NCBI GenBank assembly: GCA_028293425.1
Contig: JAQGOV010000298.1
Location: 1 to 50,180 of the forward strand
Reading direction: 5' to 3'
DNA from: Verrucomicrobiales bacterium
Lineage (GTDB): Bacteria; Verrucomicrobiota; Verrucomicrobiia; Limisphaerales; JAQGOV01
DNA: 50,180 nucleotides
Shown here in pieces: positions 4,047-48,925 of the stretch. Within the stretch, counting starts at the first letter, position 1, and each line of letters starts with the position of its first letter. Below the pieces are notes generated by a model. That model did no database searches. It was not told the origin of the DNA and saw only the letters and a program-made list of their open reading frames with translations. Both the position numbers and the translations under genes were made by a program.

Positions 4047-5675
4047 CTAGGGCGCACAGACTTTTTGCACGCGAAAGAAGCGGTAGGGGAAAGTGGGCGG
4101 GATGGCACTTTGATATTCAAAAGACCCAGTGTTACCTGCGACCCGCGTGGCGAAGGTGGTCCAGGCGCTTGCAGGTAAGGAAGGGGTGGCTTGAATTGCG
4201 TAGGTTCCGTTGGAACAGCCACTCATTTTGAGCTGGATCATGTTTCCTGGCACAAGCGAGATGGAATCGAGGGTAGGCAGGCAAGGATCCCCAATCTCGA
4301 CTGCGCCTAGGTCAGAAATGGGCACACAATCGTTGTTGGCATCCCTTGGCCGGGAAAAGCCTCGTTGGTCCACGGAAGGAAAGCTGGTGGGCGAACCGGC
4401 ATCCAGAGCGGGACTGGTCGGGAGCAAGGCGTGGGTCAGGGTAGGGCCACCGTTGTTTTGGAGTGGTTCCAAGCGAGCGTCCAGATTCAAAAGGAGCCCG
4501 GTGGTGTCGCCAGAGATGTTGCAGCCAGACGGGTCCTGGATCAAATTGTAGCCTTCTGAGATCAAAGTGCCGCTGCAGTCGGGGCCGTTCGGCGCGGAAT
4601 TTCCCGCTATGATAGTGTTGTGACATCGCACCTCGCCTGCGGAAATGAAGAGGCCTCCACCTTGGTTGGAAGGCTCGGACAGGTCGCATCGATTGGAGGT
4701 AATCGTGCAGCTTTTGATAAGAGTCAATGCAGCCCGGGTCCAAATACCGCCACCTGAATTGTCAAAGATGCTGTTGCCGGTGACCGTGCAATTGCTCAGA
4801 AGGAGAAACGTGCCGTCTGCGCCAATCCCTGCCCCGAGGCCATGGAAAGTACTGTTGCGAACAATGCAGCTACCAATAATCGTCGTGGTTCCGGAACAGG
4901 AAATTCCGGCCGAACCGTTATCCACTACATTCGAAGAGATGGTGCAATCACGTATCAGGGTGGTTCCTTCAGCATAAATGCCTGCTCCGTCGGTGCCAAA
5001 GTTCCCCACAATGACGCTGCGGTTGACCGTCAAGCTGGCCGTGGTGCCCAAACTGGCAATCGCTCCGCCGAACAGGAACGGGGACCCGTTTCCGTAAAAC
5101 GTGCAGTCGTTGACGGTGAGCGAGCCGCTGTTCGCGATACCGCCTCCAAGCCCCTCCCGATTATTACTTTTGGCCACTACGCAGCGGTTGAGGGTGAGTG
5201 AGCCAAAGTTCCGGATGGCTCCGCCGGCGACATTGGTTTGGAGAAAATGGCTGAAGCCATTTGTCAGGGTCAGGTCGTTGATGGTGGCCGTCACACCCGG
5301 CGGAACGGAGAAGATAGGGGTCTTGCTTTGACCATCCAGGGAGAGGTGGTTGGTTCCGGGACCCGTGATGGTCAGGCTCTTGGGGATCTCCAGCAATCCC
5401 GTAGTCAAAAGCAGGGTACCTTGAGCAGTTACCTGGATGGTGTCCCACGCCGCAGAGCTATTCAAAGCCTCTCGCAAGGAACCGGGACCACTGTCCGCGA
5501 GGCTATTCACGGTCACCGTTGCCGCAGGCAGGGATGTTACCAAGAGCAGGCAGTTAAAGCCGGTCATCAGCCGAAGTGCTCGCGACCACCTTTGGGCTGC
5601 CCTGAACGCAGACGGGAGCTTGAGTGAAGTTTTCAGGGGTGCAGCGATAAACGACGATTCGTGTTTTTCGGGCAT
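4047..5675 (-). CDS. Secreted beta-helix (polymorphic-OMP-like GGAI/GGGI repeats) protein with choice-of-anchor-Q-like domain
   Basis: TVNSLADSGPGSLREAL N-motif, GGAI/GGGI repeats, LQNNGGPTLTHALLPTSPALDAG…DQRGFSRP…DLGAVE. True start may be downstream (MTGFNCLLLV signal peptide). Confidence 0.85.
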   Translation of the reverse strand: MPEKHESSFIAAPLKTSLKLPSAFRAAQRWSRALRLMTGFNCLLLVTSLPAATVTVNSLADSGPGSLREALNSSAAWDTIQVTAQGTLLLTTGLLEIPKSLTITGPGTNHLSLDGQSKTPIFSVPPGVTATINDLTLTNGFSHFLQTNVAGGAIRNFGSLTLNRCVVAKSNNREGLGGGIANSGSLTVNDCTFYGNGSPFLFGGAIASLGTTASLTVNRSVIVGNFGTDGAGIYAEGTTLIRDCTISSNVVDNGSAGISCSGTTTIIGSCIVRNSTFHGLGAGIGADGTFLLLSNCTVTGNSIFDNSGGGIWTRAALTLIKSCTITSNRCDLSEPSNQGGGLFISAGEVRCHNTIIAGNSAPNGPDCSGTLISEGYNLIQDPSGCNISGDTTGLLLNLDARLEPLQNNGGPTLTHALLPTSPALDAGSPTSFPSVDQRGFSRPRDANNDCVPISDLGAVEIGDPCLPTLDSISLVPGNMIQLKMSGCSNGTYAIQATPSLPASAWTTFATRVAGNTGSFEYQSAIPPTFPYRFFRVQKVCAP

Positions 5676-5870
5676 ATTTCCTCTCCTTATAGTTGACTTC
5701 CAGCCTCCTGAGCCAAGCGCAGACTTTGCCTCAGAAACAACACGGCTGAGGAGTGGAGCTTAGGGCTAAGCTTTCTCGGCGACCATAGGGTAATGACCGC
5801 GACGGGGCATGGATTGCCCGACACTCGTAGTCTATCGACCCACCCGCTTTGTTCCCTCGGTTACCTTCTG

Positions 5871-6151
5871 GTGCGTCAAGCAAGCTTGGTGGTCTTAGTG
5901 AAGGTAAAGTGTTCATAGTGGTAAAAGGCCAAAGTCCATGGTGCCAACTCAGCGGCGGCTGGAAAGCACCGACCGATGAAAGCTCCTATCACTACTTTGC
6001 CCGATTGGGACTGGTCACATTGTGAAAGCTCTTGACCCAGGACTTTGGCGAGAGCCGGATGCGGGAAATCCGCTCGTACGGTTCGAAGAGGGGGAGGGCA
6101 GCGCCGGTGCAAAGCCCATCGCCTTTCGCAGGTGCTTCCTCTCTACTCTAC
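5871..6151 (+). mobile_element. Internally deleted (ORF-less) group II intron remnant
   Basis: 5' GTGCG at 5871. Domain V GAGCCGGATGCGGGAAATCCGCTCGTACGGTTC (6052-6084, AGC triad). Domain VI stem with bulged A6145 and 3' end CTCTAC at 6151. Maturase-like C-terminal stub …YHYFARLGLVTL* ending 6025. Confidence 0.85.
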
Positions 6152-6275
6152 TTGAAAACCCCGGCAGCCACCTTTCCTGTTGTGGACTTCTTGCGCCTCC
6201 TCTTTCCTTCCTGATCGGCGACTGAGGTTCCGGCTTTGAAATCGTCGCCTGCTTCCCCTAATATGTCCTCATTCC

Positions 6276-10840: not shown

Positions 10841-10893
10841 CGTTGTGTAATGGTAAAATTTTGCCGGAAATTGGAACAGGAAACAAAATTATT

Positions 10894-13072: not shown

Positions 13073-13075
13073 GTG

Positions 13076-17114: not shown

Positions 17115-19961
17115 CTAATTCTTTGCGGTTGCCGTTAAGTCTTTCTTGCGAAAGATGATAATATGTTGGCGCGGTAAAACTTCAATCGTTTCGGACCATT
17201 GCAAGGGCAGGGGAGCCATCTCCTTTTTCACCTGCGCTTCGGTCATCTTGTGCAGAGCTTTGATCGGTACTTCGGGATCTTCTCCCCGAAACTCCACAAA
17301 CACTACCCGTCCTCCCGGCTTCAGGCCTTTGACGATATTTTCCATCATCTCGTACGGATGATCGAATTCATGGTACACGTCCACCATCAGCACCGTGTCC
17401 ACTTGCCCCGGTGGCAGCTTGGGATCAGTAATCGTTCCGAGGATCGGTCTCACATTTCGGATCTTCAAGCCGGCCATCGTGTTCGTGAGCAGATCCAGCA
17501 TCTCCGGCTGGATATCCACCGCATAAATGGTCCCTTTCTCACCTGTTTTGGGCGAGAGCTTCCGGCAGAAATACCCCGTGCCCGCGCCAATATCCGCAAT
17601 GACCTCACCCGATTTTATCTTGAGTGAATCCACTAACAAATCTGTTTTCTCCTCTTGTTCCCGCGTCGGCCGCTCCAGCCAGTCAGCACCCTGGTGGCCC
17701 ATCACATGCGCAATTTCCCGGCCCAGGTAGAATTTGCCAATCCCATCACGGCTGTGCTGTTCGCGATGTTCATACTGCGGCCTTGGAGCGGCGGCGATCT
17801 TTTCCTCTACCTTGGCAAGCTGCCAGGCTGGCTTCAGCTCATAAACGTCCAACAAAGTAGCCCGCGCCTCGCCTCCGGATGCCGTTAGCTCAATCGTCCG
17901 GTTGTCTGCTTTCGGCAGTGCATAAATCGGCATGTAAACCAGCCCATCATTTCCAAAGATTTCGATCGAAGCGCGATCCACCAGCATCTGCAAACGAATC
18001 CGCCCCTCCTGCGGTGGCAGAACCGCTTTCTTTCCCTGGCAAGACAGCTCCTTCTTTTTCGCATCATACTCCACCGTTATGCCACGGATTGAGAAAGCGA
18101 TCTTCTCCGCATCCTGCAAGTCGATCTCGGTTCGCAAATCCAATAGCTCGCCGCTCATCTCGGCCAGCGGGTTCTTGTCAGTGCCGATCGCCGCTCCTTT
18201 GCGCGAATAGTGCTTTCCATGCAGGCTTTCGATTTCCTTCACGGGCAGCGCAAACATACGCACTCCCGCCGGTGTGGTGTGCAAGGTGAGTTCGCACGGA
18301 AACGCCATCATCTGGTTGAAAGACATTCCTGGCAGCTTGGCCTGGCCCCACCCGATTTGAATCCGCCGCCCATCCTCCACATCGCTGTAAGTCTGCGCTG
18401 CGTAAAAGCAATTGCCGTAATGACCCTTATGTTTGCCGGATTCCTTCTTGAACTCTTTGCCATCAAAACTCCCGATAATGTAGTCATCATCAGCCGCGGT
18501 TAGCACCCACTTGCGATTCGACGAGTCGCCATCCACGGGCAGCTCGAAAATATCAGGGCACTCAAAAAACCCATCGATTTTGCTCCGGTAAGTCCAGTTT
18601 TTCAGGTTGTCCGACGTGTAAAAAGCAATGGTTCGTTGTTCCTTTGTTCCCTCGGGGCCCTCATCATAAAGCGCCATCACCCAGCTCCGGGTTGGTTCAT
18701 GCCAGGTCAGCTTTGGATCACGGCCGCGATGTTTCACCACCGGGTTCCCAGCATACTCCGTCCAGCTCCGGCCACGATCATTGCTGTAAAGAATGCATTC
18801 CCCGCGTCCCGTGCTCGTGAAAGCTGCCACCAGCACCTCCTCTTTCCCCGTCTTGAACCCGGAGGTGTTTTTCTTATCCACCACTGCGCTGCCGGAAAAT
18901 GCCCAATCCCCGAATCGCTTTGGATAGAGCGCGATCGGCAACTCCTCCCAGTGCACCAAATCCCGGCTCACGGCATGGCCCCAATGCATGTTCCCCCAAT
19001 CCCAGCCATAAGGATTATGTTGATAGTACAAATGATATTCCCCCGCCGAATAGACCAGTCCATTCGGGTCGTTGTTCCAGCCGCGTCTGGAGGAGAAATG
19101 GAATTGCGGACGCAGTTTCTCCCGGTAAAGATCCTCCGCACCGCGAATGGAATCCGCGCACTCGATTCCCTTTAACCCTTCGGAAGTTTCCGGCATGCGG
19201 TCCACTCGCACCTTCAGGTCTTTGCCTTGAAACGCACGCACATCGCTGAATACCCAAAAATCGGGAGCTCCGTCCGCCAGCTCAATCTCAAACTCCCGCA
19301 CGGTCTGGCCATTCGCCAGGTAGCTGACTCTCCGTTTGGGGCCGCGGTTTTTTACTGGCAGGTTCAGGTAAGGATGTTCAATCGCGATGACTCTCTCCGC
19401 ATTTGCCAGGGTCAGGTTGGCCTTGCGCTCGCTCTGCACAATCTGATCCACGTTGATGTGTCCCCAACCCCCGGTTGCGCGATCAACAATCTGAATTATG
19501 GCCGCTTTCCCTCGGAACTCCTTCACATCCCAGGTGTGCCAATCCAGCCGCTCGCTCCCGCCAGCGTGCTCGTTGGGTCCACTCGCGCTCAGGACAGCTT
19601 TCTCATCCACCAGCAGATCGATCCGCAGCTTCTCCGAGTCCTTGCCTCCCCCGACGAGAAAGTTGATGTAGCTCCTCTCAATCTTGAATGGGGCCGAGGT
19701 GAGTGTGCCTGTGCTTTTATCCCCGTGGTAAAATGAGTTTACCATTCCTTTGCCGAGGAAACCATCCACCTGCATCTGCCCTGGCAGCGTTCCCTTGGCC
19801 GGACCCGGCCCAAACGCCTCGCCTGTGGCTTTCCAACTCCCGTAATCAGCTCCCTCAAAATCAGCCACCATGATGTCCGGCAGCTCGGCGCTCCGGCCCA
19901 GGGTAGCAATGCAGCCAAGTAGTGAAAGCGAGGTGACCAAGGCGCGCGCGATTTGCTTCAT
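17115..19961 (-). CDS. Secreted GH32 beta-fructofuranosidase/levanase fused to C-terminal class I SAM-dependent methyltransferase
   Basis: Signal peptide. GH32 motifs WNNDPNG, MHWGHAVS, FSGS, RDP, ECPD, SIEIF. After ~17820: YLGREIAHVMGH…WLER, IADIGAGTGY, AVDIQPEM, VDVYHE. Confidence 0.88.
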   Translation of the reverse strand: MKQIARALVTSLSLLGCIATLGRSAELPDIMVADFEGADYGSWKATGEAFGPGPAKGTLPGQMQVDGFLGKGMVNSFYHGDKSTGTLTSAPFKIERSYINFLVGGGKDSEKLRIDLLVDEKAVLSASGPNEHAGGSERLDWHTWDVKEFRGKAAIIQIVDRATGGWGHINVDQIVQSERKANLTLANAERVIAIEHPYLNLPVKNRGPKRRVSYLANGQTVREFEIELADGAPDFWVFSDVRAFQGKDLKVRVDRMPETSEGLKGIECADSIRGAEDLYREKLRPQFHFSSRRGWNNDPNGLVYSAGEYHLYYQHNPYGWDWGNMHWGHAVSRDLVHWEELPIALYPKRFGDWAFSGSAVVDKKNTSGFKTGKEEVLVAAFTSTGRGECILYSNDRGRSWTEYAGNPVVKHRGRDPKLTWHEPTRSWVMALYDEGPEGTKEQRTIAFYTSDNLKNWTYRSKIDGFFECPDIFELPVDGDSSNRKWVLTAADDDYIIGSFDGKEFKKESGKHKGHYGNCFYAAQTYSDVEDGRRIQIGWGQAKLPGMSFNQMMAFPCELTLHTTPAGVRMFALPVKEIESLHGKHYSRKGAAIGTDKNPLAEMSGELLDLRTEIDLQDAEKIAFSIRGITVEYDAKKKELSCQGKKAVLPPQEGRIRLQMLVDRASIEIFGNDGLVYMPIYALPKADNRTIELTASGGEARATLLDVYELKPAWQLAKVEEKIAAAPRPQYEHREQHSRDGIGKFYLGREIAHVMGHQGADWLERPTREQEEKTDLLVDSLKIKSGEVIADIGAGTGYFCRKLSPKTGEKGTIYAVDIQPEMLDLLTNTMAGLKIRNVRPILGTITDPKLPPGQVDTVLMVDVYHEFDHPYEMMENIVKGLKPGGRVVFVEFRGEDPEVPIKALHKMTEAQVKKEMAPLPLQWSETIEVLPRQHIIIFRKKDLTATAKN

Positions 19962-23513: not shown

Positions 23514-23840
23514 ATGAGCGCTCGTAAACTTGAAAATACGGATCTATTTCAGGCATTAACCATTCAGGGGCAGGCCACTCGTTTGGCCCTTCCCGCTGGA
23601 GCGTTCCGTATCCGCAAAAACGGTATTGAGTTTCGCAGCGAGCAACCCATTCCCACCTGGGCGGAAATGACCGTCCTCTTGGAAACCCAATCAGATTCCA
23701 AAAAACTGAACTGCACCGGCGTCGTTGTCGCTTGCAATGGCAATCGCCATTCCGGCTACGTCGTCTCCATGCTCTTCACCAGCCTTTCCCGCCACGCCCA
23801 AGCCCGTTTGAGTTCTTTGGCTTATTCCCCACTAGCCTGA
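23514..23840 (+). CDS. Hypothetical protein, PilZ-like beta-barrel
   Basis: GIEFRS…IP…V.VLL…LNCTGVVVAC…YVVSMLFTSLS resembles the PilZ fold; no RxxxR motif. Confidence 0.5.
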   Translation: MSARKLENTDLFQALTIQGQATRLALPAGAFRIRKNGIEFRSEQPIPTWAEMTVLLETQSDSKKLNCTGVVVACNGNRHSGYVVSMLFTSLSRHAQARLSSLAYSPLA

Positions 23841-23869
23841 TTTCCGGTAGCCTGCTAAGATCCGCGGCC

Positions 23870-24958
23870 ATGGAACTCTTTCATAAAATTTTGAAAGCGG
23901 CCGTTGACGCGGGCGCTTCGGATATCCACATCAAAGTTGGCACCCCTGTTGTTTTTCGGATCAGCAGACAACTAACTGCTATCGAGGCTCCCTATCCTAC
24001 CAACGAGTGGATGGAGGAAGTGGCGAATCTCATTATTCCCAAGCACTTAAAAGCGGCCTTCGACACCGATCGCGAAACCGATTTTTCCTACAAGGTTGAC
24101 GGCATCGGCCGCTTTCGAACCAACGTTTTCCAGCAGCGCGGCGAATTGGCCTTGGTCATGCGATATGTGAAGCACCTGGTTCCCGATTTTCATGCGCTGG
24201 GCTTGCCCGACGTCATCAAGCAAATTGCTGAATCCGCCCGGGGCATCGTCCTGTTGGCTGGCACCACCGGTTCTGGCAAGTCGACCACGCTTGGCGCCAT
24301 GATCGAGCACGTCAATGGCAACTTCCGCAAGCACATCGTTACCCTTGAGGACCCAATCGAATACATGTTCGAAGACAACCAATCGCGTATCGAACAACGC
24401 GAGATTGGGTTGGACACACAATCCTTCGCTCGCGGGCTGAAAAGCGCGCTCCGCCAGGACCCGGACTTGATCATGATTGGCGAAATGCGCGACCCTATTA
24501 CCATGGCCGCCTCCATGAGCGCCGCCGACACTGGCAACCTTGTCTTCTCCACCGTTCACACCACCAATTCATCCCAATCAATCACCCGTATTTTGGACTT
24601 TTTCCGGGCTGACGAACGAGATCAGGTGCGGCGCCAGCTTGCGTCCACTCTCAAGGCGGTTATCTGCCAGCGTATGTGCAAGACCGTTGATGGCGGCATG
24701 ACCCCGGCCTGCGAAATCATGCTTAACACCCCGGTCGTCCGGAAGATGATTGAGGAAAACCGGATTGAAAAATTGCCGGCTGCCATTGAAACCGGGTTCG
24801 ATGACGGCATGCAGGACTTCAACCGAGCCGTGTTTAATCTGGTGCAGGAAGGCCGCATCACCAAAGAGGAAGCCATGCAGAAGGCCGGCAACCCTCAAGC
24901 TCTCGAAATGAATTTCAAGGGTATCTTCCTCTCCTCCGGCAGCAGGATATTGGGTTAA
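23870..24958 (+). CDS. PilT/PilU-family type IV pilus ATPase
   Basis: ASDIHIKVG, RFRTNVF, GTTGSGKSTT, EDPIE, LRQDPD…GEMRD. Start re-set to 23870. Confidence 0.92.
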   Translation: MELFHKILKAAVDAGASDIHIKVGTPVVFRISRQLTAIEAPYPTNEWMEEVANLIIPKHLKAAFDTDRETDFSYKVDGIGRFRTNVFQQRGELALVMRYVKHLVPDFHALGLPDVIKQIAESARGIVLLAGTTGSGKSTTLGAMIEHVNGNFRKHIVTLEDPIEYMFEDNQSRIEQREIGLDTQSFARGLKSALRQDPDLIMIGEMRDPITMAASMSAADTGNLVFSTVHTTNSSQSITRILDFFRADERDQVRRQLASTLKAVICQRMCKTVDGGMTPACEIMLNTPVVRKMIEENRIEKLPAAIETGFDDGMQDFNRAVFNLVQEGRITKEEAMQKAGNPQALEMNFKGIFLSSGSRILG

Positions 24959-34448: not shown

Positions 34449-36128
34449 ATGTTTCGTCGATTGCGTGCCGCAGGCCATTGGGTTTTTCTCGCGCTGCTCT
34501 TTTGCGGGTTTTCCAGTCCCGTGTTTGGGGCGAGTTCAAAACGAGCTGCGGCCCCGGTGTTCAGCGAGGCTCGCGGCATCTTTGAGAAGCCGTTCTCGTT
34601 AGAACTCACGAGCAAAACGGCTGGGGCCAAAATCTATTTCACCACCAATGGCTCCGCCCCGGAGGAAGGCAAAGGGACCCTTTACCGTGGCACATTGAGA
34701 GTGGCAAGCACCACGGTTTTGCGCGCCGTCGCTATTGCCGACGGACTGGCTCCTTCGGAGATCGTCACGGAAAGTTATCTCTTTTTGCCGGACGTGGTGA
34801 AGCAAGCCGGCTCTGGTTTTCCTACGAACTGGGGAGTGAACCTCGGCAAGGCGGTGCCTGCGGATTATGAGATCGATCCGGAGATCACCGGGCATCCTGA
34901 TTACCGAGACCAGATGCTGCCGGCTTTACAAGCGATTCCGATGGTCTCGGTGGTGATGGAAGTGGAGGACCTGTTTGGTTCCAAACGAGGGATTTACGCG
35001 AATCCCAAGGAGAGCGGAGCGGAATGGGAGAGACCAGCCTCTGTCGAGTTGATGTTTCCCAAAGGTGAGAAGGGATTCCGAGTTGGATGCGGGATACGCA
35101 TCCAGGGCGGCTGGAACAGGCGCCCGGAAGAAAGTCCAAAGCATTCCTTTCGACTGCTGTTTAAGAAGAAGTATGGCCCCGGAAAATTGAAGTTCCCGCT
35201 CTTTGGTGCAGGAGGAGAGTTTGACACGCTGATTCTGCGTGGAGGATGCAACAATACCTGGCTGCACTGGAGCGGCGAAGAACGGAAGCGTGGCGACTTC
35301 ATTCGCGATCAGTGGATGCGAGACAGCCTCAGAGAGATGGGGCATCCATCCGCGCACGGGTTTTTCGTGCATTTGTATCTCAATGGCCTTTACTGGGGCC
35401 TTTACAACCTTTGCGAGAGGCCAAGCGCGCCTTTTGTGGCGGCCCATTTCGGAGGCAAACCGGAGGATTACGATGTGCGCAACGGCGATCACATCCTGGA
35501 AGGAGATGGGGAATCCTGGAAAAAGATGATGTCACTGGCGAACGCCGGCGTGAAAACAGACGGAGAGTTCGCCGCGATTGCTCAGAAGGTGGACATGCCG
35601 GAGTTGGTCGATTATCTGATCCTGAATTTTTACGGCGCGAATGCGGATTGGGACCATGCATCGAATTGGTACGCGGCCCGACGACGGAGCCCGGCCGGAA
35701 AGTTCGAATTCTTCGTCTGGGACGGCGAGAGGACGTTGGAGGGAGTAACGGACAATTCCATGGCTTTCGACGATGACCAAAGCCCGCCGCGTCTCTTTCA
35801 TAAGCTAAAGGAAAATCCGGAGTTTCGACGACTGTTCGGCGAACGCGCGCGGCTGCATCTCATTAACGGAGGAGCTCTCTCGCCAGCGAAGGCGGCGGAG
35901 CGTTATCGAAAATGGGTGGAGAAACTGGATTTGCCCGTGATTGCGGAATCGGCTCGATGGGGAGACTACCGACGCGATGTTCATCGGTATAAAACCGGGC
36001 CGTACGAGCTTTATACGCGCAAGGACCATTGGCGTCCGGAAGTGGATCGCCTGTTAAACCAATATTTTCCGAAGCGGAGCGATGCGGTGCTGAAGCAGTT
36101 TGAGGAGCGGGGATTGTACAGGCCCTGA
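34449..36128 (+). CDS. CotH-family protein kinase with N-terminal chitobiase/FN3-associated domain
   Basis: IYFTTNGSAP, WERPASVE, PKHSFRL, LYLNGLYWGLYNLCER, DW…NWY, WDGE, AESARWGD. Confidence 0.85.
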   Translation: MFRRLRAAGHWVFLALLFCGFSSPVFGASSKRAAAPVFSEARGIFEKPFSLELTSKTAGAKIYFTTNGSAPEEGKGTLYRGTLRVASTTVLRAVAIADGLAPSEIVTESYLFLPDVVKQAGSGFPTNWGVNLGKAVPADYEIDPEITGHPDYRDQMLPALQAIPMVSVVMEVEDLFGSKRGIYANPKESGAEWERPASVELMFPKGEKGFRVGCGIRIQGGWNRRPEESPKHSFRLLFKKKYGPGKLKFPLFGAGGEFDTLILRGGCNNTWLHWSGEERKRGDFIRDQWMRDSLREMGHPSAHGFFVHLYLNGLYWGLYNLCERPSAPFVAAHFGGKPEDYDVRNGDHILEGDGESWKKMMSLANAGVKTDGEFAAIAQKVDMPELVDYLILNFYGANADWDHASNWYAARRRSPAGKFEFFVWDGERTLEGVTDNSMAFDDDQSPPRLFHKLKENPEFRRLFGERARLHLINGGALSPAKAAERYRKWVEKLDLPVIAESARWGDYRRDVHRYKTGPYELYTRKDHWRPEVDRLLNQYFPKRSDAVLKQFEERGLYRP

Positions 36129-38695: not shown

Positions 38696-38932
38696 ATTCC
38701 GTATAAGTTAATTTTCCCTCTTTCGGCAGAAATGCCACTGGTTTTTGTGGGGTGGGGTTTTTCCGAGTGAATGCTGACTCTGCTCGGTTCCGGATTTCGC
38801 ACCGAACGCCAAACATTCCCAAAATGTTTTTTTGCGTTGGAGATTGACGCCACCCAACGATTCTCCTTAGCATTAATTGAGTTTCTGTTGTAAACCCAAG
38901 AAACACCATTCAGTCGTACTCATTTGTTATTC

Positions 38933-41900
38933 ATGAAAGTATCGCTCCGACTTCGTTGTCAGGCACTTGCCCTTTTAAGCCTTTTCGTTGTCTCCGCGCA
39001 GGCGCAGACCATCACAAACCCTAGCTTTGAAACTGACACTTTCACTGTATCCCCCGGCTACGTGAGTGGAAATGCTCCGATCACCGGCTGGTCGGTTGGT
39101 GACCCGGCCCGGGCCGGGATCAATCCTGGCGGCGGCAGTCCGTTCGCCGACAACGGCACGATCCCAGCCGGGAGCCAGGTCGCTTTCCTTCAAAACAGCG
39201 CCAACAGCTCCTTGAGCACCGTGATCAGCGGGCTGACCATCGGGGTTACCTATAAAGTGAGCTTTCGGGTCAACGCGCGCAACGGCAATACGGCCAATTT
39301 AAAGGTGGACATTGATGCCAATAACATCATGAACACTGCAGTCACTTCGGTCGGCGGGGCGAATGCCTATAAGTATTTTGCTTTTGATTTCACTGCCAGC
39401 GACGTTGCCCAAACGCTGAAATTGCGCAATGACGCAGGAGGAGACAACACCTTGTTGGTCGATGATTTCAGCATCGCCCAAAGCCATAGCGGGTGGTCTT
39501 ACGCAGCCTGGAACGACGATGCCAGCTCCGGCGTGGACGGCACCAAGACCTACACGCATGCCTTCAACTTCGGCAGTTCGGTCGGCACAACGATAAACGG
39601 AATTCCTTTCGCCGGCGTGGCTGGCGGCAACCCCGGCGGCGCCACTTTCTCCACCACTGGCCTTGGCAACGTTTTCATTAACGATGGGAATAATGTTTCG
39701 GGCGGAAGCCGGGCCATGGCGAACGACTTCGTCTATAACGGATTCCCGGCCACCATAACGATCAATGGCTTAATCCCAGGGGCCGAATACGTGGCCACGA
39801 TCTACTCCGTCGGCTGGGAGGATGATGGCACGCGCGGCGCAACTTTCAGCGTCGGAAATGATCGGCTGACTGTAAGCCAGGACCAATTTGGCGATAACAA
39901 CGGCATTCGGTTTATCTACCGCTACATTGCCACCGGCAGTTCTGTCACTCTTACCTATACTCCCCTGAGCGGGAATTCGATTCATACCTACGGATTCAGC
40001 AATTACCAACTGGCCGCTCCTCCGACCGCGCCGTCCATTGTTACGGACCCGAAGAGCCGTTTCGTCAGTGAGGGGCAGCCCTTCACCTTGGCCAGCGGTG
40101 CATCGGGTTTTCCGCTTCCGACCTATCACTGGCAAAAGAATGGCCAGGACGTGCCGGGGGCCACTACCAGCACCTTGACGATCGGGGCGGCGACTCCAAA
40201 CGATGCAGGTGGTTACACGCTCATTGCTGACAATACGGGCGGCTCGGCGACCAGTGCTGTGGCCGTGGTGAAAGTTGGTTTTCGTCTCGTGAACCCGAGC
40301 TTCGAGGACGATAACTTCACCGTCGCTCCAGGTTATGTCTCAGGCAATGGGCCGATCACCGGTTGGGCCTCTCTCGGCAATCATGGCATCAATCCTGGCG
40401 GCGGCAGTCCGTTCGCCGATAACGGCGCCATCCCTGACCGCACCCACGTCGGCTTTATGCAAGGGGACGGAGCCATGAGCCAGATGGTCAGCGGGTTTAC
40501 CCCGGGGCGGCAATATTATGTAGTTTATTCCGAAAACGCCCGCAGCGGCGGCGTACCTGCCCTGGCGGTTAAGATGGGTGATTCGCTCATCGTGCCTCAG
40601 CACTCCCGGGCTCCGGTGGGCGGCGGGAACCCTTATGTGGAAGTTGCCAGCGATCCATTCATTGCAGACTCGGACACGCTGCAACTGAGCTTCATCAAGA
40701 GCAATCCAAACGGTGGAGACACCACCATGTTGATTGATAATGTCTGCGTGCTGGCGCTCCCGGAAGGAACCTCACCCAGCGTCTTACGCGCGCCGCAATC
40801 CCAAATTGTCAGCGTAGGCCAGAGCGCCACTTTCAGCGCCGGTGGCTTCGGCTCCCTCCCGCTTGATTATCAGTGGCAAAAGAATGGCGTAAATATTCCC
40901 GGCGCCACTGGAACCACCTTAAGTTTTAATAACATTTCTAAATCGGCCGATGCCGCTTACACCGTCGTGATTCATAACGACTCCGGTTCCGTGACCAGCG
41001 CCGTCGCAAGACTGACCGTCTGGGAGCCCATTCCGGGCCTGTTCAACACCGGACTGGACACCAACGGCGTCGCTTTGGCAGACAACCTGGTGGATCCTCA
41101 TTACCGATTGACCACCAACCCTGACGGCGGATCTCCGGACGCCATTGTGGAAGACTCGACGGCTTTCCCGATTGTTGGGGGACCATGGCTCGGCAACACC
41201 GCCTCCTCCAAGTGGATTGGACCGAAGTTGAACACGGGTGCGAGCCCCATCGGCATTTACACCTATCGCATGACGTTCAACCTCACCAACCGCGATCCGA
41301 ATACTGTAGTGATTCAGGGCCAATGGGCTACGGATAACTCAGGTCGCCAGATTTTGGTGAACGGCGTCGCGACCGGAAATCCTCAAAGCACCGTGTTCTC
41401 AACCTACACTTCCTTCAACATCTCAACCTCCAATGCCGCTTTCCTGCCCGGTGACAACACCATCGATTTTGTCGTCGAGAACGAAGCCACTGCCGGTTAT
41501 ACCGGTGTGCGAATAGAGTTCGTTGCCAGCAATGCGCGGATCCTCCCGAATATTCCGCCGAGCATCACCCTTCAGCCGGTCAGTCAAACCTCGGTGGTGG
41601 AGAGTAATAGCGTGACGTTTAACGTCGTCGCCACTGGTAGCGACCCGCTCGCTTACCAATGGCGCAAAAACGGTACGCCTATCCTTGGCGCAACCAACGT
41701 TTCCTTCACCATCGCCTCCGCTACCACAAACGACAACGCTGCCTATACAGTCAGGGTCGTCAACGGTTCCGGACAGGCCATCAGCGACCCAGCTCAACTG
41801 GCGGTGGTTTATCGCCGTGTGCCCGGCATTTTCAGCACTGGCGTCAACGAGGACCTCACACTGGCCCCGGATAGCTCCACCGACCTCCACTGGATCATTG

Positions 41901-42523
41901 GGAGCAGCGCCGATCCTGTCAGTACGGGCCCGGATGCTATTGTGATCGACTCCGCCAATTCCCCGGTGCCCCCATGGATTTCAGTGGGTCCCAAGTCCAA
42001 GTGGATCGCTCCGCAATCCAATCAAAATATTGGCAATGCCGAAGGTAGCTATACTTATCAGACGTTCTTTGATCTGACGGGTGTTGACCTTTGCACATTC
42101 CGTCTCACCGGCCAGCTCGCGGTGGACAACAGCGTGGTGGACATCCTGGTTAACGGTGTTTCCCAGGGAGTGAACGGCGGAGCCTTTGCGGGGTGGCTGC
42201 CCTTCACGCTGAGCACTGGTTTTGTGACCGGCTTGAACAGCGTGGATTTTATTGTGAGCAATTCGCCCACCACACCGAATCCAACCGGCCTGCGGGTCGA
42301 CCTGGATGGCCTGGTCAGAATCGGCGGAGCTCTGCCGGCCAAGCTGGCGATTACCCGCACCGCGCCGGATACGTTGACTGTGACCTGGACCCCGACCAGC
42401 CAGTGCGACAAATTGCAGGCAACGACCGATGTGACTGGCGGCTGGACCACGATTCGCACCACCAGTCCCGCTGTTATCTATACTACCAACGCTCCGGCAT
42501 TGTTCCTGCGCGTGACCCAGTAA
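38933..42523 (+). CDS. Large secreted protein with three Ig-like domains and two pairs of duplicated beta-sandwich domains
   Basis: Signal peptide (AQA). Ig motifs P.I…P…Y.W.KNG..I/VPGAT…D…Y x3. NPSFE…PFADNG domain x2; PG.F.TG…SKWI domain x2. Confidence 0.8.
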   Translation: MKVSLRLRCQALALLSLFVVSAQAQTITNPSFETDTFTVSPGYVSGNAPITGWSVGDPARAGINPGGGSPFADNGTIPAGSQVAFLQNSANSSLSTVISGLTIGVTYKVSFRVNARNGNTANLKVDIDANNIMNTAVTSVGGANAYKYFAFDFTASDVAQTLKLRNDAGGDNTLLVDDFSIAQSHSGWSYAAWNDDASSGVDGTKTYTHAFNFGSSVGTTINGIPFAGVAGGNPGGATFSTTGLGNVFINDGNNVSGGSRAMANDFVYNGFPATITINGLIPGAEYVATIYSVGWEDDGTRGATFSVGNDRLTVSQDQFGDNNGIRFIYRYIATGSSVTLTYTPLSGNSIHTYGFSNYQLAAPPTAPSIVTDPKSRFVSEGQPFTLASGASGFPLPTYHWQKNGQDVPGATTSTLTIGAATPNDAGGYTLIADNTGGSATSAVAVVKVGFRLVNPSFEDDNFTVAPGYVSGNGPITGWASLGNHGINPGGGSPFADNGAIPDRTHVGFMQGDGAMSQMVSGFTPGRQYYVVYSENARSGGVPALAVKMGDSLIVPQHSRAPVGGGNPYVEVASDPFIADSDTLQLSFIKSNPNGGDTTMLIDNVCVLALPEGTSPSVLRAPQSQIVSVGQSATFSAGGFGSLPLDYQWQKNGVNIPGATGTTLSFNNISKSADAAYTVVIHNDSGSVTSAVARLTVWEPIPGLFNTGLDTNGVALADNLVDPHYRLTTNPDGGSPDAIVEDSTAFPIVGGPWLGNTASSKWIGPKLNTGASPIGIYTYRMTFNLTNRDPNTVVIQGQWATDNSGRQILVNGVATGNPQSTVFSTYTSFNISTSNAAFLPGDNTIDFVVENEATAGYTGVRIEFVASNARILPNIPPSITLQPVSQTSVVESNSVTFNVVATGSDPLAYQWRKNGTPILGATNVSFTIASATTNDNAAYTVRVVNGSGQAISDPAQLAVVYRRVPGIFSTGVNEDLTLAPDSSTDLHWIIGSSADPVSTGPDAIVIDSANSPVPPWISVGPKSKWIAPQSNQNIGNAEGSYTYQTFFDLTGVDLCTFRLTGQLAVDNSVVDILVNGVSQGVNGGAFAGWLPFTLSTGFVTGLNSVDFIVSNSPTTPNPTGLRVDLDGLVRIGGALPAKLAITRTAPDTLTVTWTPTSQCDKLQATTDVTGGWTTIRTTSPAVIYTTNAPALFLRVTQ

Positions 42524-42540
42524 TCGTTTATTTTTGATTC

Positions 42541-42576
42541 AGGGAGACCGGGGGCTTGGGTTCCCGGTCTCTTTTT
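42541..42576 (+). terminator. Terminator-like hairpin between the two giant surface-protein genes
   Basis: agggagaccggg…cccggtctcttt + T tract. Confidence 0.75.
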
Positions 42577-42580
42577 GCTT

Positions 42581-45500
42581 ATGAAGTATCTTTTTGTATT
42601 GCTGGCCGTTTCAACTTTCCTCGTCGCGCCCAACACACGTGCCGACAGCACCGTGGTATTCAACGAGGTGATGTACCATCCCAACGCCACCAACGAGGCA
42701 TCGCTCGAATGGCTGGAATTGCACAACCAAATGGCGGTGGACATGGACATCTCGGGCTGGTCTTTACAAGGCGGGGTGCAGTTCAACTTCCCGGAAGGCA
42801 CGGTCATAGGCGGCGGCAAGTATCTGGTGGTTGCAGCCTCCCCTGCGACGCTTACCGCAGCCACGGGCGTGGCCAACGTGGTGGGGCCCTTCATCGGCCA
42901 ATTGTCCAACGCGGGTGCCCTGGTGGAACTCAGAAACAACAACCAGCGGCTCATGGACAGCCTGCAATATGGGGTGGAGGATGAGTGGCCCGTGGCGGCG
43001 GATGGAGCAGGCCCTTCGCTGGTGAAAACGAACCGATTTAGCGGGAGTGCCCTGGCATCCAGCTGGCGGGCCAGCTCTCAAGTGGGCGGCACGCCTGGAA
43101 CGGCCAACTTTCCCACCACCCAGCCCACTACCACCAAAACGAATCTCCTCCCGATTAGCGCCACCTGGCGCTACGACCAATCCGGCACCGACCTGGGCAC
43201 TGTCTGGACCGCCCCGGGTTTCAACGATAGCGCCTGGCCCAGCGGGCCTGGATTGCTGGCCGTCGAAGATTGCAACTGCCTCCCCGAGCCCATCCGCACC
43301 ACGCTTACCCTCGGCCGGACGACCTATTATTTCCGCACCGCATTCAATTACGCCGGTGATCCATCGAGTGCTTCCCTGCAGTTGAGCCATGTGATCGATG
43401 ATGGCGCGGTGGTTTATTTGAACGGGGTCGAGATTTGGCGCATTGGGCTGGCGGCCGGTCCCGTTACCTATGGCACCTTCGCTTCTCGTTTAGTGACGGA
43501 CGGAGTCTACGAGGGGCCGTTCACCGTGCCGGCAACATCCCTGGTGCAAGGCACAAATGTTCTCGCGGTGGAGGTGCACCAAAACGGCGCCACCAGTTCG
43601 GATATTACTTTTGGGCTCGCGCTGGATGAGTCGCACACGGTCGGGGGAATGACCGGAAGTTCCGCGGCGATGCTCCCACTGGTCCTGAACGAGCTCGAGT
43701 CCGCCACCAATTCCAATTTCTGGCTCGAACTTTTCAACTACGGCTCGACCAATCTGTCGCTGGATGGTTTTTCCATTGTCCGGCTCGGGGGAGCTTACCG
43801 GGAGTTTGCTTTGACGGGCGCGTCGGTGCCCCCAGGCGGGTTTTTGATCCTGCCAAAGGCCACCCTCGGCTTTGGAGTGGGCACGGGTGACAAGCTCGTG
43901 CTCTACGGCCCGGGTAAAACCACTGTCCTGGACGCCGTGGTGGCCAAACGCACGGGGCGCTCCCGGTTGCCCAACGGAACCGGCCCATGGCTCGTGACCA
44001 CCGAACCGAGCCCCGGCGCGTCGAATGTTGTCGCGTTGAATAATGCCGTGGTGGTCAACGAGATCATGTATGACCATACTCCTTTAACCGCCACTCCCGC
44101 CGTTTACACCTCCACGAACCTCCTGGTTGCCATGACCAACCTCTGGCTTTATAACCAACAGGGCCTGGACCTCGGCACGGGCTGGCGCCAGGGAGATTAC
44201 AATGATGCGGGCTGGCTCTCCGGGCGCGCTCTGCATTATGTCAGCACAGCCACTTTACCCGCAGCCAAGAATACCCCGCTCAGCGTCACCAACGCCTCTG
44301 GCACTCGCCTCATTACCTGGTACTTTCGCACTCCGTTTGTTTTCACCGGGGACGTGGCCAGCGCTGAATTGGTCTTGCGTACCATCATTGATGACGGTGC
44401 GGTCTTTTACCTGAATGGTGCGGAAGTCTACCGGCAGAATATGCCAGCGGGAGCGGTCGCTTATAGCACTTTCGCCAGCGCGGGCGTTGCCACCCCTGGG
44501 TTGACCGGACCTGTCATCGTCCCCACAACTACCCTGGTCAATGGCACCAATTGGCTGACGGCCGAAGTGCATCAGTTTAGCACCAATGGTTTGCTCTTCA
44601 GCCTGGACGTAGTGTTCGGAGCGGAACTGAGCGCCAAATCCCTGATTTCTCCCGCGCAGCCGACCCGTGAATCCCCGGAGTCCTGGATCGAGTTGTATAA
44701 CCGGAGCAGCAACGCCGTTTCGCTCAGTGGCTGGAAACTTCGCGATGCCATCAATTTCGACTTTGCCACAAACCAAACGATCGCCGCGGGAGGTTACCTT
44801 GTGATCGCGAAAGATCCCGCTTTCATGCAGGCGCAGTATCCCGGTCTGAATGTGCTCGGGCCTTTCAGCAAATCTCTCTCCCATAACAACGACCAGATTC
44901 GGCTCGATGATGCCCTGGGCAATCCAGCCGATGCCGTGCACTATTATTCAGCCGGACGCTGGCCACGCCTGGCCCACGCCGGTGGCTCATCCCTCGAACT
45001 GCGTGATCCGCAGGCAGACAACAGCACGGCGGAGGCCTGGGCCGCGAGTGATGAAAGCGGCAAATCCACTTGGGCCACCTACACCTATCGTGGTGTGGCG
45101 GCCGCTGAAACCGCTCCCAGTCCCACCACCTGGAAGGAGTTTGTGCTGGGCATGCTCGACGCTGGTGAGGTGCTTCTGGACGACATTAGCGTCATCGACT
45201 CTCCCTCCGGCGCGGCGACTCAATTAATTCAGAACGGAAATTTCGAGAACGGCTTGACCGGTTGGCGCCTGCTCGGCAATCACAAAGGCAGCATCGTGAC
45301 GGACCCGGCCAACCCGGGCAACCACGTGCTGCGTCTGGTCGCCACCGGCTCTACCGACCACATGCACAATCACGCGGAGATCACGCTTGCGGGTGGAGCT
45401 TCGATTGTGAACGGGCGCGAATACGAAATCTCTTTCCGCGCCAAATGGCAGGGGGGAAACAATGCGCTGCTCACCCGCCTTTACTTCAACCGCCTGCCGC

Positions 45501-48500
45501 GAGTGACCCAACTGCCGATCCCCGCGCTCAGCGGCACTCCCGGCGCGAGGAATTCCCGCTTCGTGGCCAACTTGGGCCCCACCTATACTGATTTCAGCCA
45601 CACGCCTACCGTCCCTTCGCCCAATGCCGCCATCACTGTCAGTGTAACGCCCAGCGACCCGCAGGGCGTGACCAATGTAACGCTCTTCTGGTCGGCCAAT
45701 GGTGGCACCTGGAATACAGCCCCTATGGTTGCGCAGGCGAGCGGAGCCTTTCTCGGCACGGTGCCTGGCCAGACCGCGGGTACTCTGGTCCAGTTCTATG
45801 TGGAAGGGGCGGATTCGCTCGGGGCCAGGACCACTTTTCCGGCAGACGGCGCCAATTCCCGCGCCTTATTCCGGGTCAATGATAATGCCGCGATTTTCGA
45901 CGTCTTGCACAACCTCCGCATCCTGATGACACCGGCGGACACGGCCCTGCTCCATGCGCCCACGAACGTCATGAGCAACGACGGCCTCGGGGCTACGATC
46001 GTTTACAACGAAGAGCAGGTCTTCTATGACATCAACCTCCACCTCCAGGGCAGCGAACGTGGACGCAACGACAGCAGCCGGGTCGGTTTCACATTCAGCT
46101 TCCAGCCGGATAACCTTTTCCGTGGTGTGCATGAGGGTATGTCGATCGATCGTTCGGGCGGTTACTCAGGGCTCGGCGGAAAACACGACGAAATTTTGCT
46201 GAAACACATGGTCATGCACGCGGGAGGGCTTCCCGGGATGTATGATGATCTGATCCATGTCATGGCCCCGCGAGCCCAGGACAACTCCACCGGCCTGCTT
46301 CTCCTGGCCAAGTACGGAAATGTCTTCCTCGATAGCCAATATACGAATGGAAATAATGGAGACCTTTTCAAGCTGGAGCTGATTTATTCTCCCACCACCA
46401 CCTCGGACGGTACTCCTACCGGCTACAAGCTGCCGCAGCCGGATGATGTCGTGGGCGTTGATTTTCAGGATTTGGGCTCGGATCAGGAATCCTATCGCTG
46501 GAATTACCTGAAGGAGAACAATCAGAGCGGCGATCGCTGGGATCAAATGATCACAGTGGCGAAAATGTTCGGCCTGCCGGCCGGGAGCATCGATGCGCCT
46601 TCGCGCAGATTGATTGATGTCAACGAATGGTGCCGTGCCTTCGCCATCGAGTCGCTCTTCGGCGTCGGTGACAGTTACGGCTTTGGGCTCGGCCACAACT
46701 TCATGCTTTATTTCCGTCCTTCGGATAGCCGGGCTCTCGCGTTTCCCTGGGATATGGACTTTAGTTTTACCCAGTCCGCCACTGCCCCGTTGCTGCCCAG
46801 CGCAAATGTCACCAAAGTATTGAGCCTGCCAGCCAACCAGCGCCTGTATTACAGCCACCTTTATGATTTGATCAACACCACTTACAATCTCACCTATGCT
46901 ACCCGCTGGGGGAATCATTTCTCTGGATTGTTGGGACAGACCTGGTCGGGTGCGATCAACTATATCGGTGCGCGCGCAAGCTTCGTGCTGAGCCAATTGC
47001 CCACCGCCACCGCTTTTGCCCTCACCAGCAACGGAGGCAATGATTTCACGGTGACTAACAACCTCGTGCAGCTCACCGGAACTGCACCCATCCGAGTCGA
47101 GTTCATCGAGATCAATGGCATCCGTTACCCCATCACCTGGACGAGCACCACAGCCTGGTCCATTTTCGTGCCGGTGGACGCCGGGACAAACCTGCTTTCC
47201 CTCCAGGCAATTGATCGTTATGACCACGTGCTCACCAACGTCACGGACACCATCAAAGTAGTGAACAACGGCCAGGTGCCGTCGCCGCTGGGGTATGTGG
47301 TCATCAACGAAATTCATTATCACGCCACGAATTCAGGCGGCAGTTTTGTGGAATTGCACAATACGCATCCGAGCGTGGCATTCGATCTATCGAACTGGCG
47401 GTTGGAGGGTGTCGATTTCACTTTCCCCGAAGGTTCACTGATTTTGCCTGGCGGCTTTTTCGTCGTAGCCAGCGATACGAATGTGTATTCGCTCACTTAC
47501 TCGGCAGCGCCCCTCCCGGGCGGCCAATACAATGGAACGCTCCAAAACAATGGCGAAATTTTGAAACTGCTGCGGCCGATCGCCACAAACTTGAACGAAA
47601 TGATTGATGCCGTCCGCTACAGCGATCAAGCGCCCTGGCCCACAAACGCGGATGGATTTGGCGCATCTTTGCAAGTGGTGGATCCCACCCAGGAACGCTC
47701 GCGGGTGGCGAATTGGGCCGGCGCGGCTCCTACCCCCGGCGCTACCAATCTGGTGCGGGCCGCTCTCGGAGCTTTCCCCTCGCTCTGGCTGAATGAATTG
47801 CTCGTCTTTAATACCAATGGCGTAGCGGACAACTTTGCCGAGCGTGAGCCATGGATTGAAATCTTCAACCAGGGCGGCAACGTTGTGAACTTGGCCGGCC
47901 TGTTCCTGAGTGACGACCCGAACACCCCGCTCAAATGGCCCTTCCCAGCAGGGAGCGCTCTCGCTCCGGGTGAATTCCGCATCATCTGGGCGGATGGCGA
48001 GCCGGGCGAATCGGCCGGCGCAAATCTCCACACCAGTTTCCGCCTGACCAACTCCTCGGGAACGATCATCCTCTCCAGGACCAACGCCGGCAGTGTTCAG
48101 GTGCTCGATTACGTGGAGTATTTTGGCCTAACCCAGAATCGTGCATTTGGTTCGTGGCCCGACGGGCAAGCGATTGACCGCCAAATCTTCCTCTACTCGA
48201 CTCCGGGCGCTCCCAATAATCCGGCAAGCGCTCCAGTTCCGGTGCTGATTAGCGAATTCATGGCCGACAACGCCGCACCCGGTGGCTTGCGCGATCCCGT
48301 GGACGGCCTGTATCAGGATTGGGTCGAGCTTTATAATCCAAATACAAATGCGTTTGATTTATCCGGCTACTTCCTGAGCGACACACTCGCCCAGCCGAAA
48401 TTTCAGATCCCTCTGAACACTGTGATCGGGGCCCATGGGTTCCTGCTCGTTTGGGCCGACAACCAGCCCGAGCAGAACGGGCTCAGCCCATTCGGCGACC

Positions 48501-48925
48501 TGCACGCAGGTTTCCAGCTCACCGCTTCGGGTGAAGCCATTGCGATTTTTGCCCCGGACGGCACCCTCCAATCCTCCGTCGTTTTCGGCCAGCAATTCCA
48601 GAACGTCAGCATGGGACTCTTCCCTGAAGGAGTGACCAATGGCGGGTATCGGTATATGACCAACTTTACCCCTCGTGCGGCCAATTCCATCGCTTCCGGG
48701 CCCGCGGCGTTCCCGGTGACGGTTTCCGCAGTGGGAGCGAACCTGACGCTGGTGTGGCCTTCCTTGCCCGGCAGAACCTATCGACTTTTTTACAAACAGG
48801 ACCTTTCCACTCAAACCTGGGTCCAATTGCAACCGGACGTTTCTGCCAGCGGTGCCAATGCCACCGCTCAACTTCCGATCAGTGGAACGACGCAGGGATT
48901 CTATCGAATTCAGTTGCTCCAGTAA
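42581..48925 (+). CDS. Giant secreted lamin-tail-domain / CotH kinase protein
   Basis: Signal peptide. Multiple LTD repeats (VVFNEVMYHP…WLELHN, VINEIHYH, LISEFMADN…WVELYN). DDGAV.YLNG.E beta-sandwiches x2. CotH core (LQGSERGR, DSY…HNF, PWDMD). ATG at 42581. Confidence 0.85.
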   Translation: MKYLFVLLAVSTFLVAPNTRADSTVVFNEVMYHPNATNEASLEWLELHNQMAVDMDISGWSLQGGVQFNFPEGTVIGGGKYLVVAASPATLTAATGVANVVGPFIGQLSNAGALVELRNNNQRLMDSLQYGVEDEWPVAADGAGPSLVKTNRFSGSALASSWRASSQVGGTPGTANFPTTQPTTTKTNLLPISATWRYDQSGTDLGTVWTAPGFNDSAWPSGPGLLAVEDCNCLPEPIRTTLTLGRTTYYFRTAFNYAGDPSSASLQLSHVIDDGAVVYLNGVEIWRIGLAAGPVTYGTFASRLVTDGVYEGPFTVPATSLVQGTNVLAVEVHQNGATSSDITFGLALDESHTVGGMTGSSAAMLPLVLNELESATNSNFWLELFNYGSTNLSLDGFSIVRLGGAYREFALTGASVPPGGFLILPKATLGFGVGTGDKLVLYGPGKTTVLDAVVAKRTGRSRLPNGTGPWLVTTEPSPGASNVVALNNAVVVNEIMYDHTPLTATPAVYTSTNLLVAMTNLWLYNQQGLDLGTGWRQGDYNDAGWLSGRALHYVSTATLPAAKNTPLSVTNASGTRLITWYFRTPFVFTGDVASAELVLRTIIDDGAVFYLNGAEVYRQNMPAGAVAYSTFASAGVATPGLTGPVIVPTTTLVNGTNWLTAEVHQFSTNGLLFSLDVVFGAELSAKSLISPAQPTRESPESWIELYNRSSNAVSLSGWKLRDAINFDFATNQTIAAGGYLVIAKDPAFMQAQYPGLNVLGPFSKSLSHNNDQIRLDDALGNPADAVHYYSAGRWPRLAHAGGSSLELRDPQADNSTAEAWAASDESGKSTWATYTYRGVAAAETAPSPTTWKEFVLGMLDAGEVLLDDISVIDSPSGAATQLIQNGNFENGLTGWRLLGNHKGSIVTDPANPGNHVLRLVATGSTDHMHNHAEITLAGGASIVNGREYEISFRAKWQGGNNALLTRLYFNRLPRVTQLPIPALSGTPGARNSRFVANLGPTYTDFSHTPTVPSPNAAITVSVTPSDPQGVTNVTLFWSANGGTWNTAPMVAQASGAFLGTVPGQTAGTLVQFYVEGADSLGARTTFPADGANSRALFRVNDNAAIFDVLHNLRILMTPADTALLHAPTNVMSNDGLGATIVYNEEQVFYDINLHLQGSERGRNDSSRVGFTFSFQPDNLFRGVHEGMSIDRSGGYSGLGGKHDEILLKHMVMHAGGLPGMYDDLIHVMAPRAQDNSTGLLLLAKYGNVFLDSQYTNGNNGDLFKLELIYSPTTTSDGTPTGYKLPQPDDVVGVDFQDLGSDQESYRWNYLKENNQSGDRWDQMITVAKMFGLPAGSIDAPSRRLIDVNEWCRAFAIESLFGVGDSYGFGLGHNFMLYFRPSDSRALAFPWDMDFSFTQSATAPLLPSANVTKVLSLPANQRLYYSHLYDLINTTYNLTYATRWGNHFSGLLGQTWSGAINYIGARASFVLSQLPTATAFALTSNGGNDFTVTNNLVQLTGTAPIRVEFIEINGIRYPITWTSTTAWSIFVPVDAGTNLLSLQAIDRYDHVLTNVTDTIKVVNNGQVPSPLGYVVINEIHYHATNSGGSFVELHNTHPSVAFDLSNWRLEGVDFTFPEGSLILPGGFFVVASDTNVYSLTYSAAPLPGGQYNGTLQNNGEILKLLRPIATNLNEMIDAVRYSDQAPWPTNADGFGASLQVVDPTQERSRVANWAGAAPTPGATNLVRAALGAFPSLWLNELLVFNTNGVADNFAEREPWIEIFNQGGNVVNLAGLFLSDDPNTPLKWPFPAGSALAPGEFRIIWADGEPGESAGANLHTSFRLTNSSGTIILSRTNAGSVQVLDYVEYFGLTQNRAFGSWPDGQAIDRQIFLYSTPGAPNNPASAPVPVLISEFMADNAAPGGLRDPVDGLYQDWVELYNPNTNAFDLSGYFLSDTLAQPKFQIPLNTVIGAHGFLLVWADNQPEQNGLSPFGDLHAGFQLTASGEAIAIFAPDGTLQSSVVFGQQFQNVSMGLFPEGVTNGGYRYMTNFTPRAANSIASGPAAFPVTVSAVGANLTLVWPSLPGRTYRLFYKQDLSTQTWVQLQPDVSASGANATAQLPISGTTQGFYRIQLLQ

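Follow-up and report, generated by a model that had tools for sequence, protein, structure and literature searches.

Three proteins, here called A, B, and C, are encoded in a 50,180-nucleotide stretch of DNA (the window) from a Verrucomicrobiales bacterium (contig JAQGOV010000298.1 of assembly GCA_028293425.1), and the tail in which each of them ends is the subject of this analysis. On the reverse strand, the longest open reading frame (ORF) for protein A spans 4047 to 5675 and would give 542 amino acids; the public gene call, whose record is 100% identical, starts 36 codons downstream at base 5567 and gives 506. Proteins B (38924 to 42523, 1199 amino acids) and C (42575 to 48925, 2116 amino acids) lie on the forward strand. 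Domain scans indicate that the three bodies are mutually unrelated: A is a right-handed beta-helix protein, B carries two HpiC1/carbohydrate-binding module (CBM)-like domains and three immunoglobulin (Ig) domains, and C has six lamin-tail (LTD) domains together with CBM4_9 and CotH. Probable signal peptides of B (38924 to 39007) and C (42575 to 42643) are plain, begin at the ORF start, and were called from sequence and by a heuristic, while that of A (5520 to 5567, reverse strand) was identified by eye, counting from the internal Met of the 506-residue gene call, and was not picked up by the heuristic.

The tails themselves are beta-rich and 60 to 75 residues long. In A, the tail (4050 to 4274, reverse strand) has six predicted strands, reaches the last codon, and follows a choice-of-anchor Q domain (NF041518; 4293 to 4481, reverse strand, residues 399 to 461) that scores 71.5 bits against a curated cut-off of 25 and is placed identically by a genome-wide search. 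The tail of C (48689 to 48922, forward strand) is of the same classic type, and that of B (42332 to 42520, forward strand) is of a short divergent kind that we call B-type. A motif of two aromatic residues, Arg, and an aliphatic residue, [FY][FYL]R[VIL], lies 6, 2, and 4 residues before the stop in A, B, and C, respectively. An initial annotation of the window had described three signal-peptide proteins with different bodies and a shared terminal pattern of this FxR type, and the ORFs and the pattern were found where it had placed them.

Taken by itself, the pairwise similarity of the tails is near chance, with best BLASTP E values of 0.003 for A and C, 0.053 for A and B, and 0.35 for B and C. 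Because these comparisons are weak, we turned to profiles, at which level the family signal does not look like chance. The genome searched comprises 7.43 Mb in 750 contigs, is 88% complete, and supplied 38,088 six-frame ORFs of at least 60 amino acids. A hidden Markov model (HMM) built from the three tails only matched 35 of these ORFs at E<=1e-3, at the C terminus in 35 of 35. The iterated search converged on 185 domains in 181 ORFs, with a peak at 3 to 5 residues in the distance from alignment end to stop, and the same profiles drew no match at E<=1e-3 from the reversed ORF set. As the initial annotation had expected of such a search, the matches are many and nearly all C-terminal, both in the genome (169 of 185 domains end within 12 residues of the stop) and in a word-indexed search of public data (of 119 proteins, 114 have a terminal and 97 a single copy).

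Membership of the three founding tails is uneven. A leave-out HMM, trained on 40 tails of the genome other than these three, detects A (domain E of 7e-12, residues 471 to 537) and C (domain E of 5e-13, residues 2039 to 2114) and misses B, and the tail of B alone has a nonsignificant hhalign probability of 4% against the classic profile. A profile of 48 B-type tails, taken from homologs of B, does align with the classic profile, over 57 columns with a probability of 93.4% and an E value of 2.4e-7. The corresponding B-type HMM matches residues 1137 to 1199 of protein B at E 3e-20, yet it was trained on close homologs of B. It finds 15 ORFs in the genome, 4 shared with the classic set and 11 new, and the match is terminal in 11 of the 11; among homologs of the C-terminal region of B, 19 of 85 have a classic tail in the same place. 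Judged by sequence, the tails of A and C clearly belong to a single family. That of B, missed by the leave-out HMM and matched only at the profile-profile level, is a short and divergent subtype, not a straightforward member. The proposal of a module common to all three thus holds, provided that B is counted as a divergent representative.

Together, the two types give a total of about 190 ORFs in the genome; about 3% of genes are closed by the module, and the 181 ORFs with classic tails account for 6.6% of coding residues. When scanned alone against Pfam and NCBIfam at E<=10, the tails returned nothing credible, and neither library has a model for them. Literature searches found no description of the module, and none of the annotation sources for public tail-bearing proteins names it. 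The tails are copies of one domain family that is uncatalogued in the libraries searched, Pfam and NCBIfam.

Proteins that carry the tail look like exported cargo. The signal-peptide heuristic was passed by 102 of 128 5'-complete members compared to 1521 of 4475 background genes (34%; Fisher p 2e-25), which bears out the expectation that matches would fall on signal-peptide proteins; in about half of the 26 misses, a signal peptide can be seen by eye downstream of a start that was extended too far. Tail-bearing proteins are long, with a median of 670 amino acids versus 290 for the background, and the public ones display a wide range of domains, including Ig, leucine-rich repeat, subtilase, LamG, cadherin-like, beta-helix, LTD/CotH, PKD, and beta-propeller. 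Lipoproteins are not significantly depleted among the signal-peptide members (5 of 102 against 138 of 1521). Pro is the last residue in 82 of 167 terminal tails of the genome, compared to 9% of background ORFs, and in 76 of 114 public terminal tails.

Structure prediction describes the tail as a small folded unit. An AlphaFold2 (AF2) model on an alignment of 43 tails has a predicted local distance difference test (pLDDT) score of 88.2 and shows strands A, B, C, C', E, and F, with the chain stopping after F. A full-length AF2 model of protein A (55-sequence alignment, pLDDT 89) places the six tail strands at residues 432 to 503 of 506, preceded by a low-pLDDT linker of about 30 residues. Near-invariant positions are one Trp, one Tyr, and an F-Y-R strand. 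No match to the tail model was found in the PDB by Foldseek at E<=1e-3. From these models, the tail is best described as a compact, independently folding, six-stranded sandwich of 60 to 75 residues and of the fibronectin type III (Fn3) kind, predicted to lack strand G.

Such a predicted soluble domain differs from two familiar kinds of C-terminal element, as the initial annotation had noted. PEP-CTERM signals, like the tails, sit at the C terminus of secreted proteins in environmental Gram-negative bacteria, and the PEP-CTERM/exosortase system is present in this genome, but they consist of a short motif, a transmembrane (TM) helix, and a basic tail, none of which belongs to the module; no hydrophobic stretch was found in the tails of A, B, or C. 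Exosortase is matched twice in the genome, and about 8 ORFs are PEP-CTERM-like; these ORFs are all small, and none of the eight carries the tail module. In one passage of the Haft 2023 preprint, Verrucomicrobiota are mentioned solely in the context of PEP-CTERM. Autotransporters of the type V secretion system have a barrel of about 250 to 300 residues, in contrast to a sandwich of 60 to 75, and the domain scan found no outer-membrane barrel family in proteins A, B, and C. The PPC domain (PF04151), a small C-terminal beta-sandwich of secreted enzymes that is thought to aid secretion and is often removed afterwards, has no sequence match to the tail; in some of the cargo PF04151 does occur, but solely as a domain apart.

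The strongest hint of function comes from the position that the tail takes relative to choice-of-anchor domains. Choice-of-anchor Q has 9 matches in 8 ORFs of the genome. The tail closes 7 of these ORFs, and the remaining one is truncated on both sides by the contig boundaries; for 7 of the 9 matches, 71 to 82 residues separate the end of the Q domain from the stop, with the tail directly after the domain. The single choice-of-anchor D ORF above cut-off in the genome also ends in the tail. Among the 120 closest homologs of the body of A, 53 are tail-ended by HMM and about 6 more by eye, and other homologs end in a TM-plus-basic tail or in dockerin-like repeats. In two of them (P0182 and P0192), a terminal type A domain (TIGR04183) of the type IX secretion system (T9SS) comes immediately after the Q domain. 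One homolog of the body of B likewise has a PEP-CTERM-like tail in place of the module. After the choice-of-anchor Q domain, then, the tail occupies the slot that is taken in other lineages by a T9SS type A sorting domain.

Two further kinds of ending were seen among these homologs. In 8 of the 120 Q homologs (P0175, P0188, P0195, P0200, P0219, P0234, P0248, and P0270), the Q domain is directly followed by a short hydrophobic C terminus with the pattern aromatic-Leu/Ile-Pro-aliphatic-aliphatic plus 2 to 4 residues, which may be another unrecognized terminal signal, from a different lineage. Three homologs of the C-terminal region of B (P0415, P0420, and P0427) lack the tail and have dockerin-like Asp-rich repeats and a short Cys-containing C terminus.

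Verrucomicrobiota are major degraders of polysaccharides in soil, sea, and gut, and we know of no account of the route by which their very large exported proteins reach, or are held at, the cell surface. The reading we prefer, with tentative confidence somewhat short of even, is that the tail is a C-terminal localization handle, and it is favored by the terminal position, the exported cargo, and the substitution for known sorting signals. The cargo would be exported by Sec by means of its N-terminal signal peptide, and the tail would fold on its flexible linker. The folded tail might then be recognized as a unit, with the cargo being passed across the outer membrane or held there, in a manner analogous to the C-terminal domain (CTD) of the T9SS and with other components. 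The analysis shows the family, its terminal position, the diverse signal-peptide cargo, the predicted fold, and the positional equivalence to sorting signals; we infer all of the steps that follow Sec export, the recognition partner included.

Comparison with the T9SS type A CTD of Bacteroidota (TIGR04183/PF18962) shows how far this analogy reaches. That domain is likewise a beta-sandwich of 70 to 80 residues found at the extreme C terminus of unrelated signal-peptide proteins, dozens to hundreds of times per genome, in a restricted lineage, and in the same slot directly after choice-of-anchor Q. However, the tails have no sequence match to TIGR04183 or PF18962 in the Pfam and NCBIfam scans, and their topology is that of Fn3 minus strand G. 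The T9SS CTD is cleaved by PorU and replaced by anionic lipopolysaccharide (LPS). It occurs once, at the protein end, and is not known to be found in tandem or internally, a property that the tail module, with its internal and tandem copies, does not share. Genome-wide, PF18962 (Por_Secre_tail) gave no match in a search run without a positive control, and SprA_N (PF14349) gave none in this 88%-complete genome, nor did 14 control genomes. A bolder proposal, which we think rather unlikely, is that the tail tags cargo for a so far undescribed sorting or surface-attachment system of Verrucomicrobiota. The tag would be a functional analog of the T9SS CTD or of PEP-CTERM and would have recognition components, and perhaps processing components, particular to it. 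If so, such a system would handle about 190 proteins here and, in public data, tens of thousands.

The module is abundant in public data. At E<=1e-3, 88,247 of 1.84 billion cluster representatives match the profile, a number that falls to 10,908 at E<=1e-10. Labeled matches belong mostly to Verrucomicrobiota, Pedosphaera, Chthoniobacterales, and Limisphaerales, with a few metagenome-assembled genomes whose labels name other phyla, and neighbors in the ESM Atlas are unnamed fragments of about 77 residues with Verrucomicrobiota as the most frequent source. Within the phylum, 140 of 301 sampled genomes have a tail match, and families differ widely: the match is present in 20 of 21, 9 of 9, 6 of 6, and 5 of 5 genomes of some, and in 1 of 48, 0 of 21, and 0 of 5 of others, with 4 weak matches in the 23 genomes of one more. 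With at most 18 candidates scored per genome, these figures express presence and not copy number, and single weak matches may be ordinary Fn3 domains.

A number of observations weigh against a localization handle, and several of them point to a rival explanation, in which the tail, a small Fn3-like module, would have no sorting role and would act as a structural end-cap or spacer of a generic kind. The fold appears to be a variant of Fn3 and not a new one, because its structural neighbors are mostly Fn3 domains and its profile cross-matches Fn3 arrays, canonical ones that keep the FG loop and strand G. Against 48,161 chains, VIA-align reached a Z of 7.1 at best, in a list made up mostly of Fn3 domains, where a Z below 8 can mean merely a common arrangement, and a sequence search of the PDB with the profile gave a borderline match (E 0.01) to 3mpc, an "Fn3-like protein." The strand order A-B-C-C'-E-F is that of Fn3, as are the Trp in strand B, the Tyr in strand C, and the Tyr/Arg in strand F. 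In contrast to Fn3, the tail has 60 to 75 residues instead of about 90, lacks the FG loop and strand G, and has an extreme C-terminal bias; the Pfam fn3 model did not match the tails at E<=10.

Copies away from the protein end add to the case for an end-cap. In the genome, 16 of 185 copies (about 8%) are internal or N-terminal and are followed by FGE-sulfatase-like, LamG-like, or IPT-like regions. Among the 150 best-scoring public proteins, 148 of the 149 in which the module was re-detected have 2 to 26 tandem copies, and in 132 of the 149 the protein end is flush with a copy. Pro is also the usual residue at the boundaries between copies of arrays, so the terminal Pro may mark the edge of a domain rather than a signal. 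In multi-copy proteins, terminal and internal copies are 40% identical versus 49.5% among internal copies (n=116, Wilcoxon p 6e-11), which fits a distinct constraint on the last copy; the end repeats of arrays often diverge neutrally, however, and the support is weakened accordingly. Occurrence is patchy even within one genus, in which 9 tail matches are dispersed over one genome (G234), two ORFs of about 7000 amino acids among them, and three congeners (G144, G237, and G285) have none with all candidates scored. Such patchiness is more easily reconciled with cargo domains that can move than with a dedicated apparatus of several genes.

Nor did a search for machinery favor the handle. An enrichment test on the neighbors of 181 tail genes (609 neighbors in BLASTP clusters) found no significant family; the best cluster, a family with CxxCH cytochrome c motifs that was assigned by motif only, had 16 of its 80 members near tail genes, at an uncorrected p of 0.005 with dozens of clusters tested. 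A secretin, which the initial annotation had suggested might co-occur with the tail, is present in 295 of 301 phylum genomes and in all 140 tail-positive ones, and the 6 secretin-less genomes all lack the tail. One of these six, the 1.3 Mb genome G273, belongs to a genus in which each of the four other sampled genomes carries the tail. Yet it is also present in 155 tail-negative genomes, and the 6 secretin-less genomes come from two lineages only, so the link does not discriminate. Within the window, no candidate machinery for the tail was found among what are mostly housekeeping genes and one T2SSE-type ATPase.

In the genome as a whole, 8 PF00263 matches and, by iterated search, 10 ORFs with a secretin domain were found (on contigs C607, C363, C353, C490, C462, C26, C511, and C66), several of them in PilM/N/O-like operons. 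On the reverse strand of contig C490 (1 to 15039), a PilM-like gene, two genes without a Pfam match, and a gene for a 938-residue tetratricopeptide repeat (TPR)-secretin are followed on the same strand by those for four large secreted proteins without a Pfam match, two of which bear the tail. This operon was rejected as the general machinery for the tail, because no match to a 509-residue gene product encoded between the two tail-bearing genes turned up at E<=1e-5 in the remaining 300 genomes of the phylum.

Were the tail an end-cap, its C-terminal bias would stem from gene architecture, with a cassette at the 3' end of genes being spread by domain shuffling, and from a benefit to the folding or protease resistance of the last domain, for example through the terminal Pro. 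We regard this as possible but doubtful, since a generic spacer should not be terminal in 91 to 96% of proteins, nor should T9SS, PEP-CTERM, or dockerin ends give way to it behind one and the same choice-of-anchor domain. In addition, the other Ig and Fn3-like domains of the same proteins are internal. The view in the initial annotation of the tail as a sorting or anchoring signal therefore stands as far as terminal position, exported cargo, and the anchor slot are concerned, and falls short in that no machinery was identified and that internal copies and tandem arrays exist.

The conserved residues raise another explanation, that the tail is a CBM-like module binding carbohydrate or envelope glycan and serves as a noncovalent tether, holding the protein on a polysaccharide substrate or on LPS or capsule of the same cell. 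In its favor, the near-invariant positions hold aromatic or basic side chains, lectin-like, CBM, and glycan-degrading contexts abound among the cargo, and the sequence search of the PDB gave weak matches to the discoidin-type glucan-binding modules 2rv9 and 4zxe (E 0.006 over 53 residues). These matches, however, are borderline and extend over less than half of what is a different fold; the conserved Tyr/Arg strand corresponds to the usual F strand of Fn3 and may be purely structural; and no CBM family in Pfam matches the tail. We consider glycan binding improbable.

Less probable still, and in our estimation very much so, is a role in oligomerization by strand complementation, in which the open edge of strand F would pair with another tail or with a donor strand to build surface fibers or lattices. 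Both models do end after F and leave an edge open where Fn3 has strand G, and proteins exist that consist solely of a signal peptide and 3 to 4 modules. However, the units of tandem arrays, about 75 residues each, also lack strand G, and they leave 5 to 9 residues between strand F and the next strand A, so the six-strand form seems to be stable by itself. A complex prediction for two tail copies scored 0.00 in a run without controls, a score that counts neither for nor against such pairing.

Were the tail a tag for sorting or anchoring, sequence alone would suffice to define the surface proteome in these bacteria, the missing machinery would have a pointer, and a handle for surface display would be at hand. 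Even if its role is structural only, a curated model would annotate very many "hypothetical" C termini.

Elsewhere in the window, a CotH protein of 559 amino acids with CHB_HEX_C and Fn3_assoc domains (34449 to 36128, forward strand) is encoded just upstream of the B-C pair; it does not carry the tail, and with protein C it makes up a CotH/LTD gene cluster in this corner of the window. A lone secretion ATPase of the T2SSE/PilT type (23732 to 24958, forward strand) lies amid genes for fatty acid synthesis and glycosyltransferases, with no other secretion genes found near it. On the reverse strand, a 948-residue ORF (17115 to 19961) joins a GH32 glycoside hydrolase (N- and C-terminal domains and DUF4980) to a C-terminal S-adenosylmethionine (SAM)-dependent methyltransferase domain, which is an unusual fusion or, possibly, two genes read as one.

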